Part shown: positions 27,781-33,347 of the stretch, piece by piece
How the letters are laid out: every line of letters starts with the position of its first letter
How positions within the stretch are numbered: position 1 is the stretch's first letter
Position numbers and translations under genes: made by a program
The notes under the pieces: model-generated
The model's database searches: none
Told to the model about the DNA's origin: nothing
Seen by the model: only the letters and a program-made list of their open reading frames with translations
IMG/VR virus record: IMGVR_UViG_3300025867_000005
DNA from: a virus
Lineage: Duplodnaviria; Caudoviricetes
Direction: 5' to 3' (one strand)
DNA length: 64,000 nt

Positions 27781-28539
27781 ATGTCTGCTTTAGAAATAGA
27801 TCCGAACACACCTGAAATCGTGTTTATGTCGAGCCTTAGAACGATGCTTAAAAGCGTTGGCATCACTCAGAATCAAGAGGCGATGGATTACTTCAAACTG
27901 ATGGAAGAAGCTGTTATACGTGATGTATTCCACCGTCAAAACCCCGACAATACGGAACGCTACAAAGAACACAGAAGCCGCCAGATTTTCATTAAGATTT
28001 TTCAGAGCCGATACAAGCTGACTTATGACATTGATTATGAAATTCCAGTAGGCGATAAAAGCGCGAAGATGATAGGGAATCTCCTGACCAAATTGGAAAA
28101 AGATGAAATCCCTATTGACTATTATCTAGAATGGTTTTTTGAGACCTATATCCAGGAAAAGAAATTCACGGTTGAAAGCATTATGAATCCCTGCCAAGCT
28201 TGGGTTTTGCAATCCTTCAAACTCCAAAACCGTGATTCGATGGAAGAAATTAAAGAGAAGAAAAAAGAAGAACTTGAAATCGTTTCATTACTTGATAAGG
28301 CAAGGGAACTTGTAAGAACAGCAAGGGTGTTGAACGAAAACACTTTGGAAGAAGAAATTGTACAGACATCTAAATCTTTCAAGGCGAAAGGAATCAATCT
28401 GGAAACCTATAGGGAGATGGTAAAATCATTCTCACGAAGAATGAAGACCATTAAAGAACAGAAGATGCTAGGACGACAGGAAAAACAGACGGAAGGAGAA
28501 AAAGAAAATGGATGTGGAATTGTTTCAGAATCTGAATGA
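27781..28539 (+). CDS. hypothetical protein (replication cluster)
   Basis: 252 aa helical ORF; no motif recognised. Confidence 0.65.
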   Translation: MSALEIDPNTPEIVFMSSLRTMLKSVGITQNQEAMDYFKLMEEAVIRDVFHRQNPDNTERYKEHRSRQIFIKIFQSRYKLTYDIDYEIPVGDKSAKMIGNLLTKLEKDEIPIDYYLEWFFETYIQEKKFTVESIMNPCQAWVLQSFKLQNRDSMEEIKEKKKEELEIVSLLDKARELVRTARVLNENTLEEEIVQTSKSFKAKGINLETYREMVKSFSRRMKTIKEQKMLGRQEKQTEGEKENGCGIVSESE

Positions 28540-29101
28540 TGGCATTGACAAACTAAAGTCGTTTGATATCTCTGGGGTTAGGCTTGAATGCCCTGAACCT
28601 GGAGTTTTGGTAATGGACCAAGATGACTTTGAAACACACGTATTGATTCAAGCACCTGCTATTACGTTTTACGGTTGGCATCTTGGACGTGCTGAAGCTC
28701 ACGTTAAACAGCTTAAAGAAGACTATGACAAATGGATGAAAATCAAAAAGGCAGAAGCACAGGCTCAAATCATGGGGAAAGATCCTGATGCCTACAAACC
28801 GAGTGAAGCTGCCAAAGAAGCAAGGGTTTTTATCAATTCAAGGGAATCCGCTAAAAATTCTGAAAACGGAATAGATGAAGATGAAGAATGGAAAAACAAG
28901 ATCCGTCTTGCTGAAGAATATCGAGACACTATCAAAGCATGGTATGACGGGTTTGTCGCCAAGAACTGGCTACTTAAAGTATTTGCCAATATTCAGGAAA
29001 ATGACGGTCGTGGAGTCCGGAAAATTGACGAGAAAGATTCGGTTTACGGTAAGACTTCTATCAAGTCGAGAGTGAAAGAAAGCTTTAAGAAAATTCAATA
29101 A
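28508..29101 (+). CDS. putative recombination mediator (UvsY-like) protein
   Basis: Helical protein upstream of SSB and RecA; resemblance to UvsY is loose. Confidence 0.35.
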   Translation: MDVELFQNLNDGIDKLKSFDISGVRLECPEPGVLVMDQDDFETHVLIQAPAITFYGWHLGRAEAHVKQLKEDYDKWMKIKKAEAQAQIMGKDPDAYKPSEAAKEARVFINSRESAKNSENGIDEDEEWKNKIRLAEEYRDTIKAWYDGFVAKNWLLKVFANIQENDGRGVRKIDEKDSVYGKTSIKSRVKESFKKIQ

Positions 29102-29189: not shown

Positions 29190-30179
29190 ATGAATAACGC
29201 AGATAAGTTAAACAAACGTGAGAACAAGTCTTCCGATAAAGGAAGCAAAAATGGTACTGGAGAGAAGAAGGGTTACGTGAAGATGGGTACGGTTCATGCG
29301 AAGTGGGAGCCGGGCACCACGACAGTAAGAGCTGTCGGTGATTTCTTTGAAACACACATGCATGGACTTTCTCCAAATGATTTCGGAAGCGTAGGCGTTA
29401 TGCCCAAATCTGCTTTCGGAGGCAAAGGTAAAGACTTTATCCCGTGGGAAGTGTGTTGCTTGGATTGGGATATGATCAATGATGAATACCGCAAGGAAAG
29501 ATCTTGTCCTTTCTGCAAGTTGAATTTCCGTGCTTCTTGCATGTTGAAGAAAGAAGACTTGTCAAAAGAAGATATCGCCAAGTATACAAGGATTAAGAAC
29601 GCTTGTCATGCTGGTTCTAAAATCCGTTGGAATATCATCGATAGAGAAAATCCGACATACACGATCGTCAATCCGGACGGAACAGAATCTGATGTCAAAG
29701 GATACAAGATCGGTGGTTTCGGTATGTCCGTCTTTAAGACAGGAATCAAGGGTCTGTTTGAGATGGCAGGTGGAGATATCGCAGATGTAGATAGCGGCAT
29801 TGACTTCAACCTTAAGCGTAGCAAAGACGAAAAAGGAAAGACTGTCTATGAAGCCGTTGCCGTTATGGAAAAAGGTGCGATGAAGTTTACTCCCCTTACT
29901 GATGAACAGAAATCTTGGACGCTTTGGAATATCCCTGAAATTTTCGGGAAGGACTGGAGCTTTGAAAAGATTTACCCGCTTATGCATGAAGAGTTCCGCG
30001 AATTGCTGGACATGACGGATGAAGAGTTCCGTGAATTCAGCGGCTATACCGGAAAGAAGGCTGAAGAGCCTACAGAAGAAAAAGAAGACAAGAAAGATGT
30101 AAAAAAAAACAAGAAGGTAAAGTCAGCTCCTGTGCAGGAACAACAGGAACCGCAGGACGAAGAGATTCTTCCATTCTAA
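29190..30179 (+). CDS. single-stranded DNA-binding protein (gp32-like)
   Basis: H/C..CPFC zinc ligands, NIIDR, GIDF.LKR; charged linker ending in SSB-type acidic tail DEEILPF; upstream of recA. Confidence 0.75.
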   Translation: MNNADKLNKRENKSSDKGSKNGTGEKKGYVKMGTVHAKWEPGTTTVRAVGDFFETHMHGLSPNDFGSVGVMPKSAFGGKGKDFIPWEVCCLDWDMINDEYRKERSCPFCKLNFRASCMLKKEDLSKEDIAKYTRIKNACHAGSKIRWNIIDRENPTYTIVNPDGTESDVKGYKIGGFGMSVFKTGIKGLFEMAGGDIADVDSGIDFNLKRSKDEKGKTVYEAVAVMEKGAMKFTPLTDEQKSWTLWNIPEIFGKDWSFEKIYPLMHEEFRELLDMTDEEFREFSGYTGKKAEEPTEEKEDKKDVKKNKKVKSAPVQEQQEPQDEEILPF

Positions 30180-30331
30180 AGGAAGATCCTGTAGAAACAT
30201 CGAATGAAGCATCTGATTCTTTGGGCTTGTCTGTCGCCAAGAGTTTTCCTTGTTGGGGATATTATGATCCCAATGAATCAGAATGCAAATCTTGTAAGTT
30301 CAAATCCGAATGTGTAAAGAACACGAAGTAA
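30101..30331 (+). other. start-less -1 frame extension of SSB encoding a Cys4 finger, entered at an A9 run
   Basis: A9 at 30101-30109; -1 frame open to TAA 30329-30331; encodes ...CWGYYDPNESECKSCKFKSECVKNTK; no ATG in the frame. Confidence 0.65.
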
Positions 30332-30344
30332 AGGTATAAAAACA

Positions 30345-33300
30345 ATGGCTAAAGAAGCAAAAGCAAAGCCTACTCGCTTTGAAAACATGCAGAAATTGGC
30401 TGACCTTATCAATAAGAGTCAGTGGGGTGGTGAAAACCACGATATCGCGGGTGTCCTTGGTGGAACCGTAGTCTCAAACGTGGAACGTATCTCAACGACA
30501 TGTAGAGACATCGATTGGGCGTGGGGTGGTGGTTTGCCAATAGGTAAAATCGTAGAACTCTTCGGCGGAGAATCTTGTCTTGATAAGGACACTTTTGTCC
30601 ATTATCAGACATGGAAGAATGGCAAGCAGATTAACGATAAGGGCGGAACGATAGAACGTCTTTATGAACGTTTCACGGGTGACACCGCGACAGGTAAGAA
30701 ACAAGGAAGACATCTTCAGGAAAAAGATTGCGATTTCTTTGTAATTTCTTGTGACAATGAAATGAAAATGGTACGCAATAGGGTTATCGGAGTTGTTAAA
30801 ACAGGAAAGAAGACTTGTTTCGAGGTTACGACAGAAGATGGACAGAAGATTACATCAACTCTTGAACACAAATTCATGGTGGAATCTGGATTTAAACCTC
30901 TTTCTGATTTGAAAATCGGAGATGTCGTCTATGTCCACAACAATACAAGGATACATGGGCAAAAAGATCGTGAATATTATCCTGAAATTATGGTTAAATA
31001 TCATCCACACGCGAAAACAAAGATTGTGAATGGTTATACCTATTTCCGCGTAAGGAAATCACATGCGGTTCTTGAAGCAGATAGGAATCAAATGTCGTTT
31101 GACGAATATCAACACTTTTTGAATACGGCTTCAAAAGAAGAAATCAACAGAATAAAAACGATTCCAGAAGGCCTACATGTCCATCATATTGATGAAAATG
31201 TGAACAATAACACTATTTCTAATCTTTTAGTGATTAATCCAAAAGATCATGGTGTTTATCATTCGAAAATGAAGCTTAAAAATCTTAGTTTTGTAGCGGC
31301 TCCTGTCAGGATTACTTCAATTGTGAACGTAGGAGAACGCGACACTTATGACATTAAGTGTGATTTCCCTAACAATAACTTCGTAGCCAACGACTTTGTT
31401 GTTCATAATTCCGGCAAATCCACACTTGCTTATCACATCATCGCTAGTTTCCAAGACAAATATCCTGATAAGGGAATCTTGCTTTTGGACACTGAACACA
31501 GCTATGATCCTCTCTATGCAGAAGCTCTTGGCGTTAAGGCACAAGGGATTATCCACACTGAAGCTGAATCGGGAACTGATGCGTTGAATATCGCTAAGCT
31601 TGCTGTAGAATCAGAATGTGGTGTCGGACTGGTTATTATTGACAGCATCGCGGCTCTTACTACAAAGAGCGATGATGAAGGGGATATCGGAGATCAGACG
31701 ATGGCAGAACAGGCTAGAATGGTCAGCCAGGCTATGCGTGTTTTGAACAGCTTGATTACCAAGCACAAGATCACGTTGCTTTGTACCAACCAAGTCCGTG
31801 AAGCCGTTGGACAGTGTTTTGATTATAGCACTCCAATTACGCTTAAAGATGGCACTATCATGGAAATCGGAAAACTTGTTAATCAAAAGATTAACTGCGA
31901 AGTTCTTTCATATGATCCTGTTTCAAACAAAATAGAACCGAAGACGGTTACTAATTGGTTCGACAATGGACCAATGGCAGATGGCGAACATTTCTTACAG
32001 TTTAAGCTTTCAACTCTATGTGGCTTTGGTAAGGGAGGAATTCGTAAAATAAACGTTACCCCTAATCATATTATTTTCGTTCCTCATGGAGAAAAGATGG
32101 CTAGTGAAATTAAACCAGGAGAATCAGTATTGATTCCAGAATGGAGTTATTATTCTAAAGACCAGCATGAAATTATTCTTGGAAGTATGTTTGGAGACGG
32201 AAACCTTAGATATGACAAGGGTTCTCCTCGTGGAACGTTAAGGTTTATTCATTGTCAAGAACAGACCGATTATTGTTCTTGGAAAGCGGAATCTTTCGGC
32301 GAAGAAGTGCGTTTTGATATAAGAGGCCGTCCTCAATTTGAGACAAAATCATCTTCGGAGTTTGACCAGTATAAAGATTTCGGGAAGAAGCAGTTTCCGC
32401 GAGAAATTAGTCAAGAACACATAGACAATCTTTCTCCTAAATCTTTTGCGATTTGGTATATGGATGATGGCAACTTTAGCGGAAGTCATGAAAAAATAGG
32501 TTTTGGGAAGTGTAGAATCGGTTCTTCCTCAATTATTGGTAGAGACTTGGAAAAAATTGCCAGAAAATCAGAGGAACTTGGTCTTGGACTTCCAATGTTT
32601 AAAGAAGGTGTTGGTCTTGTTTGGTATGGAGAACAAAGCGGGATGTTCCAGCGTGGAATTTCAAAATATGTCCATCCGAACATGAGATATAAAATAAAGA
32701 AAGGGATGCCTGATTTTGATTGGACCGTAGAACGGAAAGAGAAAGAACTTGTCCCTGTCGCTAGGACCGTTCAGTCAGTTTCTGTTTATGTCCCTCCCAA
32801 AAGACAAAGGAACAAATTCGATATAGAGGTTGACGGAAACCATTCTTACATCGCTGGAGGAATGATTGTCCACAACAGTTACGGAGATAAGACAACGACT
32901 CCAGCAGGAAAGGCATTGCGGCACTATGCCCACATTAGAGCTAAACTTTCCCGTATCGGACAAATCAAAGTCGGGGATGACGTTGTTGGTGTGAAGGTTA
33001 AAATGAGTTGTGTCAAGAACAAGGTGGCACCTCCTTTCAGGAATGCAGAATACACCATTACTTTCGGTATCGGTATTGATGCCGTTGTAGGAAGTGTAGA
33101 AAAGGCTATCGCCCTTGGGGTTATTGTTAAGAAGGGCGGTTGGTTCTCTTTCAACGGGAAGACTTGGCAGGGCCAACAGACGGTTGTTGATGAACTCAGA
33201 GGGAATGCTGACTTGCGTAAAGAAATCGACGCCGCTATTGATGCCAAGACGGCTGCTTCTGATAAACCTGAAGGTACTGAGATGACGGAAGAAGAAAAGA

Positions 33301-33347
33301 AGGAGATCGCTTCTGAAGAAGATACTGCTGAAATTTCGGTTGTCTAG
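30345..33347 (+). CDS. recA: RecA recombinase with two inteins (about 368 aa after splicing)
   Basis: GGGLPIGKIVELFGGES|SGKST, DTEH, IIDSIAAL, QARMVSQAMR, NQVR, GKALRHYA, KNKVAPPF. Confidence 0.95.
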   Translation: MAKEAKAKPTRFENMQKLADLINKSQWGGENHDIAGVLGGTVVSNVERISTTCRDIDWAWGGGLPIGKIVELFGGESCLDKDTFVHYQTWKNGKQINDKGGTIERLYERFTGDTATGKKQGRHLQEKDCDFFVISCDNEMKMVRNRVIGVVKTGKKTCFEVTTEDGQKITSTLEHKFMVESGFKPLSDLKIGDVVYVHNNTRIHGQKDREYYPEIMVKYHPHAKTKIVNGYTYFRVRKSHAVLEADRNQMSFDEYQHFLNTASKEEINRIKTIPEGLHVHHIDENVNNNTISNLLVINPKDHGVYHSKMKLKNLSFVAAPVRITSIVNVGERDTYDIKCDFPNNNFVANDFVVHNSGKSTLAYHIIASFQDKYPDKGILLLDTEHSYDPLYAEALGVKAQGIIHTEAESGTDALNIAKLAVESECGVGLVIIDSIAALTTKSDDEGDIGDQTMAEQARMVSQAMRVLNSLITKHKITLLCTNQVREAVGQCFDYSTPITLKDGTIMEIGKLVNQKINCEVLSYDPVSNKIEPKTVTNWFDNGPMADGEHFLQFKLSTLCGFGKGGIRKINVTPNHIIFVPHGEKMASEIKPGESVLIPEWSYYSKDQHEIILGSMFGDGNLRYDKGSPRGTLRFIHCQEQTDYCSWKAESFGEEVRFDIRGRPQFETKSSSEFDQYKDFGKKQFPREISQEHIDNLSPKSFAIWYMDDGNFSGSHEKIGFGKCRIGSSSIIGRDLEKIARKSEELGLGLPMFKEGVGLVWYGEQSGMFQRGISKYVHPNMRYKIKKGMPDFDWTVERKEKELVPVARTVQSVSVYVPPKRQRNKFDIEVDGNHSYIAGGMIVHNSYGDKTTTPAGKALRHYAHIRAKLSRIGQIKVGDDVVGVKVKMSCVKNKVAPPFRNAEYTITFGIGIDAVVGSVEKAIALGVIVKKGGWFSFNGKTWQGQQTVVDELRGNADLRKEIDAAIDAKTAASDKPEGTEMTEEEKKEIASEEDTAEISVV
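30576..31409 (+). mobile_element. intein in RecA P-loop carrying an HNH endonuclease
   Basis: C1 CLDKDT, block B TLEHKF, ends VVHN|S; internal VHHIDENVNNN..SNL...H motif. Confidence 0.9.
31815..32876 (+). mobile_element. intein in RecA L2 region carrying a LAGLIDADG endonuclease
   Basis: C1 CFDYST, block B TPNH, ends IVHN|S; ILGSMFGDG and AIWYMDDG motifs. Confidence 0.92.

Follow-up and report, generated by a model that had tools for sequence, protein, structure and literature searches.

Our comparisons point to the SSB gene of the phage studied here as very probably subject to programmed recoding, by RNA polymerase or by the ribosome, because slippery site and downstream Cys4 module are conserved together, the module cysteines are invariant, the -1 frame has a pN/pS of 0.20 and four homologous loci have no start codon ahead of the module. 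Decoded in the standard way, the gene would give a 329-aa SSB of the gp32 type with a disordered acidic tail and a DEEILPF tip; a shift at a run of nine adenines (A9) would bring part of the products into the -1 frame, through a Gly/Thr/Ala linker and past the frame-0 stop, and so to a 380-aa form that ends in a 38-aa Cys4 module and does without the acidic tip. That one locus makes both isoforms, the long one by RNA polymerase slippage at A9, is a proposal we hold to be about evenly poised. Literature searches found no description of a recoded SSB, and, as an instance of programmed recoding in a replication gene, the locus seems not to have been described before.

Layout of the SSB locus

The window (the whole 64,000-nucleotide stretch of DNA analysed, with all features below on its plus strand) carries the 329-aa frame-0 coding sequence of the gp32-like SSB at 29190..30179, from an ATG start up to and including TAA 30177-30179. 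The slippery A9 run (30101..30109) is read in frame 0 as GTA AAA AAA AAC and provides two heptamers in phase with that frame, A-AAA-AAA (30101-30107) and A-AAA-AAC (30104-30110). The acidic tip DEEILPF follows at residues 323-329 (30156..30176). By frame scan, the -1 frame has its last stop 5' of the run at TGA 30062..30064 and is then open, for 88 codons and without ATG, from 30065 to TAA 30329-30331, while the first +1-frame stop past the run is TAA 30118..30120. Entered at the run, the -1 frame adds an extension of 74 codons plus its TAA (30107..30331); over the dual-coding stretch 30110..30176 the translations read as acidic tail in frame 0 and as Gly/Thr/Ala-rich linker in -1. The extension closes with the Cys4 module (30215..30328; 38 aa, C-x10-C-x2-C-x5-C), which was delimited by aligned modules and an AlphaFold2 model and has its Cys codons at 30251, 30284, 30293 and 30311. 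An intrinsic terminator was sought between the frame-0 stop and recA, which starts at 30345, and none was found; the SSB gene adjoins recombination and replication genes. The phage itself is a jumbo phage with a whole genome of 304 kb. In all these coordinates (SSB ORF, DEEILPF end, A9 position, TGA and TAA limits of the ATG-less -1 frame) our data agree with the initial annotation, whose second isoform of about 380 aa comes out at 380 aa by translation.

Evidence for recoding

Within the SSB gene, 29 stops interrupt the first 291 codons of the -1 frame (about 0.1 per codon), and the next 88 codons are free of them, a stretch with a chance probability of about 1e-4. Three A9 and two T9 runs make up the total of the 304-kb genome, and the A9 in the SSB gene is the only such run with a long alternative frame after it; inspection of the remaining A9, T9 and A8 runs turned up no such frame. 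Past the frame-0 stop, comparison of the window with its relative L001 gave a pN/pS of 0.20 for the -1 frame as against 1.16 and 1.89 for the other frames, which shows purifying selection on the -1 frame. In the dual-coding stretch, the same two loci differ by indels of 9 and 3 nt, and therefore both frames are kept.

Viral-contig relatives were gathered with subfamily alignments A4, A6 and A7, and of the 19 viral loci found with A4, 11 are recoded. In each of 18 distinct homologous loci (27-90% identity), the module lies in the -1 frame, and this frame opens at a slippery site, which is A9 in 13 of them, A10 in two, A7 in two and C-CCT-TTT plus stop in one. Opening of the -1 frame at the run is seen in the window, L001, L002, L005 and L003, and further recoded loci are L006, L007, L008, L041 and L065; L046 (P0077) has TGA after an A8 run and an open -1 frame, and its contig ends 24 nt later. 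In 16 of 17 recoded loci, a stop closes the +1 frame at a distance of 0-7 codons from the site. A conserved site with an overlapping ORF under selection, as expected of -1 frameshifting, is present in at least 18 distantly related lineages, with a pN/pS of 0.20. In about 40% of family members (42 of 114 rows), SSB and module are fused in a single reading frame, and those fused loci for which DNA was read lack an A run where the two are joined. In the family tree, recoded and fused forms are interleaved and proteins ending in a K run group with verified recoded loci. The family also includes module-free relatives. Neither the locus nor the SSB found a match in a phage GenBank collection; the fused relative P0015 has a 27% match to Bacillus phage SBSphiC. 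Hence, the two-isoform recoding reading of the initial annotation gains support from conservation, selection on the -1 frame and fusion in relatives, and the look at homologs that it called for finds slippery site and overlapping frame kept in 18 loci, down to about 27% identity.

An alternative view would take the Cys4 peptide as a separate protein of about 36 aa started from in-frame TTG 30221, with the A9 run being incidental. Such a TTG does stand 8-10 codons ahead of the first Cys in the window, L001 and L003, and gene callers could list a 36-aa ORF. As a refutation of recoding, however, an independent TTG start is not general: separate initiation is excluded in L006, L014, L017 and L030 since these have no ATG, GTG or TTG from the shift site to the first Cys, while in L010, L016 and L018 the sole start adjoins the first Cys and its use would lose a conserved upstream part of the module. 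Moreover, no locus has a -1-frame stop between the slippery site and the module, when elsewhere that frame has about one stop per 10 codons, the module is covalently joined to the SSB in the fused part of the family, and a profile search for other contexts among longer proteins retrieved SSB-family members only and no free-standing one. To our minds, independent translation of the peptide is therefore very improbable.

Homopolymers are error-prone, one added A would fuse the two frames and fused relatives exist, so one may also ask whether the out-of-frame state is an assembly error or a recent frameshift in a gene that is truly, or was ancestrally, fused (A10), with an acidic tail that is accidental or decaying. 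Several findings speak against this. A9 was obtained in four independent assemblies (window, L001, L002 and L005; ENA plus two JGI samples), and the out-of-frame state recurs in 18 divergent lineages, none of which has an A run of the in-frame length; the frame-0 LPF tip is kept in relatives of 46% (P0003) and 41% (P0005) identity, purifying selection acts on the -1 region, and the fused relatives are devoid of an A run at the junction. A homopolymer error, already disfavoured in the initial annotation, is thus in our view about the least credible of the explanations considered.

In bacteria, tracts of nine bases act as hypermutable contingency loci, which may count in favour of phase variation at the DNA level, i.e. 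mutation between A9 and A10 during replication with genetic, population-level switching between the two forms. In line with this, A10 does occur in two lineages (L008 and L065). These A10 lineages, however, keep the module in the -1 frame, so A10 is not the 'on' variant of A9; besides, no assembly among the 18 lineages is in the in-frame state and the L030 site has no mutable tract. A switch of this kind thus strikes us as most improbable.

SSB body and acidic tail

The AlphaFold2 model of the 329-aa SSB (pLDDT 87.9) was compared with known structures, and its core aligned by VIA-align with RB69 gp32 (2a1k_B; Z 12.2, rmsd 3.5 A, 175 residues aligned), T4 gp32 (1gpc; Z 11.4) and two more gp32 entries (Z 9.2-10.0), the next best and unrelated match reaching only Z 4.0; Foldseek returned the same six gp32 chains with E 3e-5 to 1e-3. 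Going by the model, the predicted fold is T4 gp32-like and has the gp32 topology in its OB-fold core, which covers residues about 28-286 (29271..30047, from the model ranges aligned to gp32 structures). At the level of sequence, the only links of the SSB to known families are PHROG 1192 'SSB' (E 0.01) and one Atlas cluster with PF08804 in 17% of its members. A Pfam search of the 329-aa protein gave no match, nor did the profile from the 95-sequence alignment A2 match any PDB chain, gp32 chains included; PF08804 (gp32) found nothing in the whole genome in a search that ran without a positive control. In A2, conservation is at least 90% for each of C90, C106 and C109, and the close relatives aligned in A1 and A6 all have H58; the four residues are a likely His/Cys3 zinc site in the core.

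Residues 290-329 have a pLDDT below 60 and are disordered in the model. DEEILPF conforms to bacterial SSB-Ct ends of the D-D-D-I-P-F type, being acidic with a hydrophobic-Pro-Phe end after a disordered linker, and a frame-0 LPF ending is kept in P0002, P0003 and P0005. By analogy, the tip is a putative docking site for SSB-interacting proteins.

The Cys4 module

All four module Cys residues are invariant, both in an alignment of 41 modules and in one of 56, and the AlphaFold2 model of the module has a pLDDT of 86.7. About 40% of family members carry the module as an in-frame continuation of the same SSB, which shows it to be a real C-terminal domain of this protein; in the genome, searched in all six frames with an HMM, it occurs only once. 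One of the 56 modules touched Pfam Whib (E 0.04) and none matched the EndoIII Fe-S Pfam model; the -1 peptide had no match in Pfam or PHROGs, the module fold had none with Foldseek against the PDB or with VIA-align against 48,161 chains, and the module profile had none among PDB sequences. In the ESM Atlas, features for the module scored 0.87 or less and belonged to unnamed clusters, and a shape search retrieved unnamed phage and bacterial proteins together with one gp32-bearing cluster. The module is predicted to bind metal, with Zn and an Fe-S cluster equally possible. As a suggestion, it may serve as an alternative head, partner-recruiting or DNA-contacting, on a sub-population of the SSBs in a filament.

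Route of the proposed frame switch

How might the long form come about? In our proposal, RNA polymerase would slip on the nine-A tract and add one A in a fraction of mRNAs, from which ordinary translation would yield the long form; transcripts that lose an A would meet a stop three codons on, at TAA 30118-30120, and yield a truncated SSB with neither tail. Ribosomes slipping into the -1 frame at A-AAA-AAA or A-AAA-AAC may contribute. Both the RNA-level shift and the isoform ratio are parts of this explanation that we infer.

With nine residues, the A run of the window has the length (8-9 or more) at which polymerase slippage is expected, a threshold taken from PMC5009743, which also describes high-efficiency slippage by bacterial RNA polymerase on runs of nine A/T and productive use of a tract of the nine-A/T type in Thermus dnaX. 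Among the A-run loci, 15 of 17 have A9 or A10 whatever the codon phase, and the finding of A9 in 13 of the 17 together with varying phase (0, 1 and 2 all occur) is as predicted if selection acts on the length of the tract and not on a heptamer.

The same two isoforms might, on the other hand, be made chiefly by ribosomal -1 frameshifting, with tandem tRNA-Lys slippage on A-AAA-AAA/A-AAA-AAC and mRNA that is uniformly A9, a serious possibility in our estimate even if one short of an even chance. All 19 sites examined (L030 included) hold an in-phase X-XXY-YYZ heptamer, 11 of 17 tabulated loci have a frame-0 stop right after the heptamer (e.g. A-AAA-AAG-TAA or A-AAA-AAC-TGA), a layout suiting ribosomal frameshifting, and codon phase 2 predominates (12 of 16 tabulated A-run loci); these features disfavour the polymerase route, as do the two A7 sites, which are short for efficient slippage. 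A-AAA-AAG is, in addition, the shift site of E. coli dnaX (see also PMC5009743). Yet a heptamer needs 7 nt, and 9-10 A's are kept in 15 of the 17 A-run loci regardless of phase. Nor was a shared downstream stimulatory RNA structure found when 90 nt were folded in six loci (z-scores -1.7, 0.4, 0.2, -0.4, -0.15 and -3.6), and the window site has no abutting frame-0 stop, its frame 0 running 22 codons further. On balance, we lean slightly towards RNA polymerase slippage for the A9 sites. L030 differs, as it has no A run and no homopolymer long enough for polymerase slippage: here, a canonical C-CCT-TTT abuts the frame-0 TAA and the -1 frame opens 3 nt upstream of the heptamer, which together suggest hardly anything but a ribosomal -1 shift.

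Implications

SSB tails are hubs that bring replication, repair and recombination enzymes to ssDNA. Two SSBs with different heads from one gene, their ratio set by slippage, would reveal a novel means of splitting an ssDNA filament between partner sets, and recoding here would place one more replication gene besides dnaX on the short list of conserved bacterial and phage events. With A9, A10, A7, C-CCT-TTT, fused and module-free members in one family, a comparative series for transcriptional versus translational slippage is at hand. There is also a lesson for annotation: gene callers cut these SSBs short (so that they 'end in KKK') and leave an 'intergenic' gap of 130-260 nt before recA; as a result, about one family member in four is annotated without its Cys4 module. 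A wider and, in our judgement, rather unlikely scenario is that throughout this large, mostly uncultivated family of gp32-like phage SSBs recoding sets the stoichiometry of an isoform whose hitherto unclassified Cys4 module is a redox-active [4Fe-4S] cluster domain rather than a zinc knuckle, by polymerase slippage in some lineages and ribosomal slippage in others. If true, it would give a first example of a recoded SSB and of an SSB with an Fe-S module, and a second dnaX-like case of homologous replication genes with both slippage routes.

Comparison with known systems

The dnaX gene with its tau and gamma products offers the nearest likeness among replication genes: two products share an N-terminal body and differ at the C-terminus, with an A-rich heptamer or a tract of nine A's as the slippery element. 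E. coli dnaX uses programmed -1 ribosomal frameshifting at A-AAA-AAG. Thermus thermophilus dnaX relies on transcriptional slippage at an A9 tract, and some dnaX genes have a frame-0 stop straight after the site, as described in PMC5009743 and as seen in many of the SSB relatives. Homologous genes seem to use either ribosomal or polymerase slippage in both systems, with C-CCT-TTT of L030 set against the A9 sites in ours. Unlike dnaX, which encodes a clamp-loader subunit, our gene encodes a gp32-type SSB; its two outcomes in the window are distinct tails (acidic tip versus Cys4) rather than a long and a truncated form, and neither a downstream hairpin nor an upstream SD-like stimulator was found at its site.

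T4 and RB69 gp32 share with the SSB the core fold, a disordered acidic C-terminal tail and a neighbourhood of recombination and replication genes. The structural zinc site of gp32 is formed by one His and three Cys, and the conserved His and three Cys in the SSB core are consistent with it. In contrast to gp32, the SSB ends in an LPF tip of the bacterial type and may carry a C-terminal Cys4 module, which gp32 lacks; to our knowledge, gp32 is not recoded.

Phage tail assembly chaperones (G/GT) and T7 gene 10A/10B undergo conserved -1 frameshifts that add a C-terminal extension at a fixed low ratio. Such phage cases are listed in PMC10885494, and no SSB case is mentioned in that source or in the part of PMC5009743 that was read. 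Unlike the SSB, a replication gene, these are structural or assembly genes.

As for the module, the cluster loop of EndoIII/MutY and the [4Fe-4S] motifs of WhiB have an identical spacing of the last three Cys. MutY and WhiB motifs follow a C-x2-C-P-type spacing, and many of our modules read C-x2-C-P-[LFV]-x3-C as both of these do.

In paramyxovirus P/V genes, the polymerase stutters on a short purine run and a shared N-terminal body thereby receives a Cys-rich, metal-binding C-terminus. This is the closest analogy for a frame switch that adds a Cys-rich domain, and it is an analogy only: paramyxoviruses are RNA viruses whose RNA-dependent polymerase inserts G, and proteins and hosts are unrelated to those considered here.

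Anatomy of the SSB locus

We hold it to be highly probable that the SSB gene of this phage is recoded, whichever route is taken. The ORF (29190..30179, + strand) encodes 329 aa with DEEILPF as its C-terminal end and carries an A9 run (30101-30109, +) that frame 0 reads as GTA AAA AAA AAC. Of the 29 stops that its -1 frame has in the first 291 codons, the TGA at 30062-30064 (+) is the last, and the next 88 codons up to the TAA at 30329-30331 (+) are open; this open stretch is without ATG and terminates in C-x10-C-x2-C-x5-C, the Cys4 module. A shift at the A9 run leads to a 380-aa product, in line with the roughly 380 aa of the initial annotation, whose coordinates at the locus all proved correct by ORF list and frame scan. 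The virus record holding the window is 304,025 bp long and rated complete (CheckV), hence the virus is a jumbo phage. Its entire genome holds three A9 and two T9 runs, and the SSB's A9 is the sole homopolymer with a long alternative frame behind it. A single 648-codon ORF (genome C1:75361-77307), which lies some 7-9 kb upstream of where the window starts, contains two of the three A9 runs (76572, 77270) and an A8 run (75955); the alternative frames there hit stops a few codons on, so that slippage could do no more than shorten the product.

Homologous loci

A word-indexed protein search with the SSB returned two relatives. In three independent assemblies of a 90% relative (L001, L002, L005), the window's A9 run and -1 module recur, and in a 46% relative (L003) the run occupies a different codon phase (TCT AAA AAA AAA CTG), with a -1-frame TAA abutting it and the frame open onward to a clearly homologous module. 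An exhaustive profile search added 100 remote relatives whose C-termini are either acidic tips ending in x-P-F, in-frame fusions of the Cys4 module (about 40%) or ORF stops right at a lysine run. DNA was checked for the nearest relatives and for those stopping at the lysine run: L006, L007 and L008/L009 all have an A9 or A10 run and the module in the -1 frame. A viral-contig scan with a subfamily alignment gave 19 loci, 11 recoded (A9 or A7, -1 frame every time) and eight fused in frame without an A run; none of the 19 lacked the module. Further scans contributed recoded L041 (A9) and L065 (A10), the fused pair L069/L070 and module-free loci with acidic tips (L029, L031, L042-L045).

The slippery site and finger frame proposed for the window thus recur together in homologous SSB loci, with 18 distinct recoded loci confirmed in DNA (A9 in 13, A10 in two, A7 in two, C-CCT-TTT followed by TAA in one). 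Their last -1-frame stop lies 0-68 nt upstream of the site and the -1 frame then extends 42-95 codons. For 16 of the 17 loci tabulated, a +1-frame stop comes within 0-7 codons of the site. On the family tree recoded and fused forms are interleaved, and since 'K-end' proteins group with the verified recoded loci, probably about a quarter of the family is recoded. A marine Tara Oceans contig (L046:1236-1247, protein P0077) reads A8 then TGA (A-AAA-AAC-TGA), with a -1-frame TAA abutting the A8 and the frame still open where the truncated contig breaks off, 24 nt further on; this is a further probable case of recoding.

Probable translation of the -1 frame

Comparing the window with L001 past the frame-0 stop yields a pN/pS of 0.20 for the -1 frame; the other two frames score 1.16 and 1.89. 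Within the overlap, indel lengths are divisible by three. All modules keep the four Cys, in an alignment of 41 as in one of 56, and conservation also extends to an [IV]-x-P-x-[ED]-[DE]-aromatic segment upstream of them. Separate translation of the finger from an in-frame TTG, a possibility raised at the outset, fails as a general model because four loci (L006, L014, L017, L030) have no ATG, GTG or TTG between shift site and first Cys. The in-frame fusions in relatives tell us that the module belongs on SSB; a profile search among longer proteins did not find it outside the SSB family, and the genome carries it once. The count of independent assemblies and lineages, together with the conserved frame-0 LPF tip, excludes assembly error and pseudogene decay, which bears out the earlier argument against a simple homopolymer error.

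Possible routes of the shift

Both classical routes are compatible with the data. RNA polymerase slippage would be the main one at the window's A9, a reading to which we give an even chance: 15 of the 17 A-run loci keep a tract length of 9-10 across differing codon phases, and no shared RNA structure was found downstream of the six shift sites folded, both of which we count in its favour. According to a review, bacterial RNA polymerase slips efficiently on nine-base A or T tracts, and such a tract is put to productive use in Thermus dnaX (PMC5009743). Ribosomal -1 frameshifting as the main route is a somewhat doubtful but serious candidate, given an in-phase X-XXY-YYZ heptamer at every site and a frame-0 stop immediately 3' of it in 11 of 17 loci. 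It is also favoured by L030 (2469-2484; relative P0007), where a canonical C-CCT-TTT heptamer directly followed by the frame-0 TAA (C-CCT-TTT-TAA) replaces the homopolymer: TGA TGA TGA blocks the -1 frame until 3 nt before the heptamer, and with neither A run nor start codon the module is reached through a signal unlike that of other loci.

Identity of the SSB and its two tails

A Pfam search of the 329-aa protein gave no match and PHROG 1192 (SSB) matched weakly (E 0.01). Its AlphaFold2 model, built from a 95-sequence alignment, is confident (pLDDT 87.9; residues 290-329 disordered), and its core aligns over 175 residues with RB69 gp32 (Z 12.2, rmsd 3.5 A) and, at Z 11.4, with T4 gp32; the nearest unrelated chain scores Z 4.0. 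C90, C106 and C109 are near-invariant family-wide and H58 is invariant in close relatives, which fits the structural zinc site of gp32. There is no PF00436 SSB in the genome, so this gp32-like protein is the phage's only recognisable SSB.

Frame 0 in the window encodes a tail that is acidic and disordered and whose tip resembles that of bacterial SSB, putatively a place where SSB-interacting proteins dock. Frame 0 of many relatives ends straight after the shift site; the alternatives there are an SSB that has the module and one that lacks it. The subfamily in which it stops right at the end of the run (L008, L010-L018 and L025) conserves an acidic motif of the D-G-D-G-L-L-x-G type shortly before the site, which is therefore common to both isoforms; it may be a separate partner-binding motif.

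The model of the Cys4 module is confident (pLDDT 86.7) and shows a small fold that has three short helices. Comparison with Pfam and with the folds and sequences of the PDB gave no match for it; an Atlas shape search had gp32-bearing phage proteins among its returns. Its core, C-x2-C-(P)-x4-C, resembles the [4Fe-4S] motifs of MutY/EndoIII and WhiB, only a lead since Pfam Whib was touched by one of 56 modules; zinc is an equally possible metal. We infer that the module would give some of the SSB molecules an alternative head that recruits partners or contacts DNA.

Gene neighbourhood

SSB belongs to a conserved recombination/replication cassette, found in module-free loci too, with two genes of unknown function ahead of it and RecA, followed by a 5'-3' exonuclease, behind it. 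The unknown pair (window 27781-29101), which encodes about 220-250 aa and about 180-200 aa and whose genes overlap or abut, is always upstream of SSB (window, L003, L006-L008, L029-L031). Downstream, recA (30345-33347, 1000 aa) is interrupted by two inteins, one with an HNH motif and one with a LAGLIDADG endonuclease (Pfam); it is intein-free (367-375 aa) in L003, L007 and L029. In the 46% relative a 118-aa RyR-domain (PF02026) gene (L003:5212-5568) lies between the SSB/Cys4 locus and recA.

Comparison with known systems

Searching full-text papers for SSB or gp32 in connection with frameshifting or with slippage in transcription turned up nothing relevant, and no SSB case is mentioned in the PRFect paper (PMC10885494) or in part of the Atkins et al. 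review (PMC5009743). The mechanism class has precedents; what appears new is the gene family, the module and how broadly the arrangement is conserved, which makes the case matter to workers on recoding and on phage replication. In the dnaX family both slippage routes are used, and by analogy the SSB family may likewise employ polymerase as well as ribosomal slippage.
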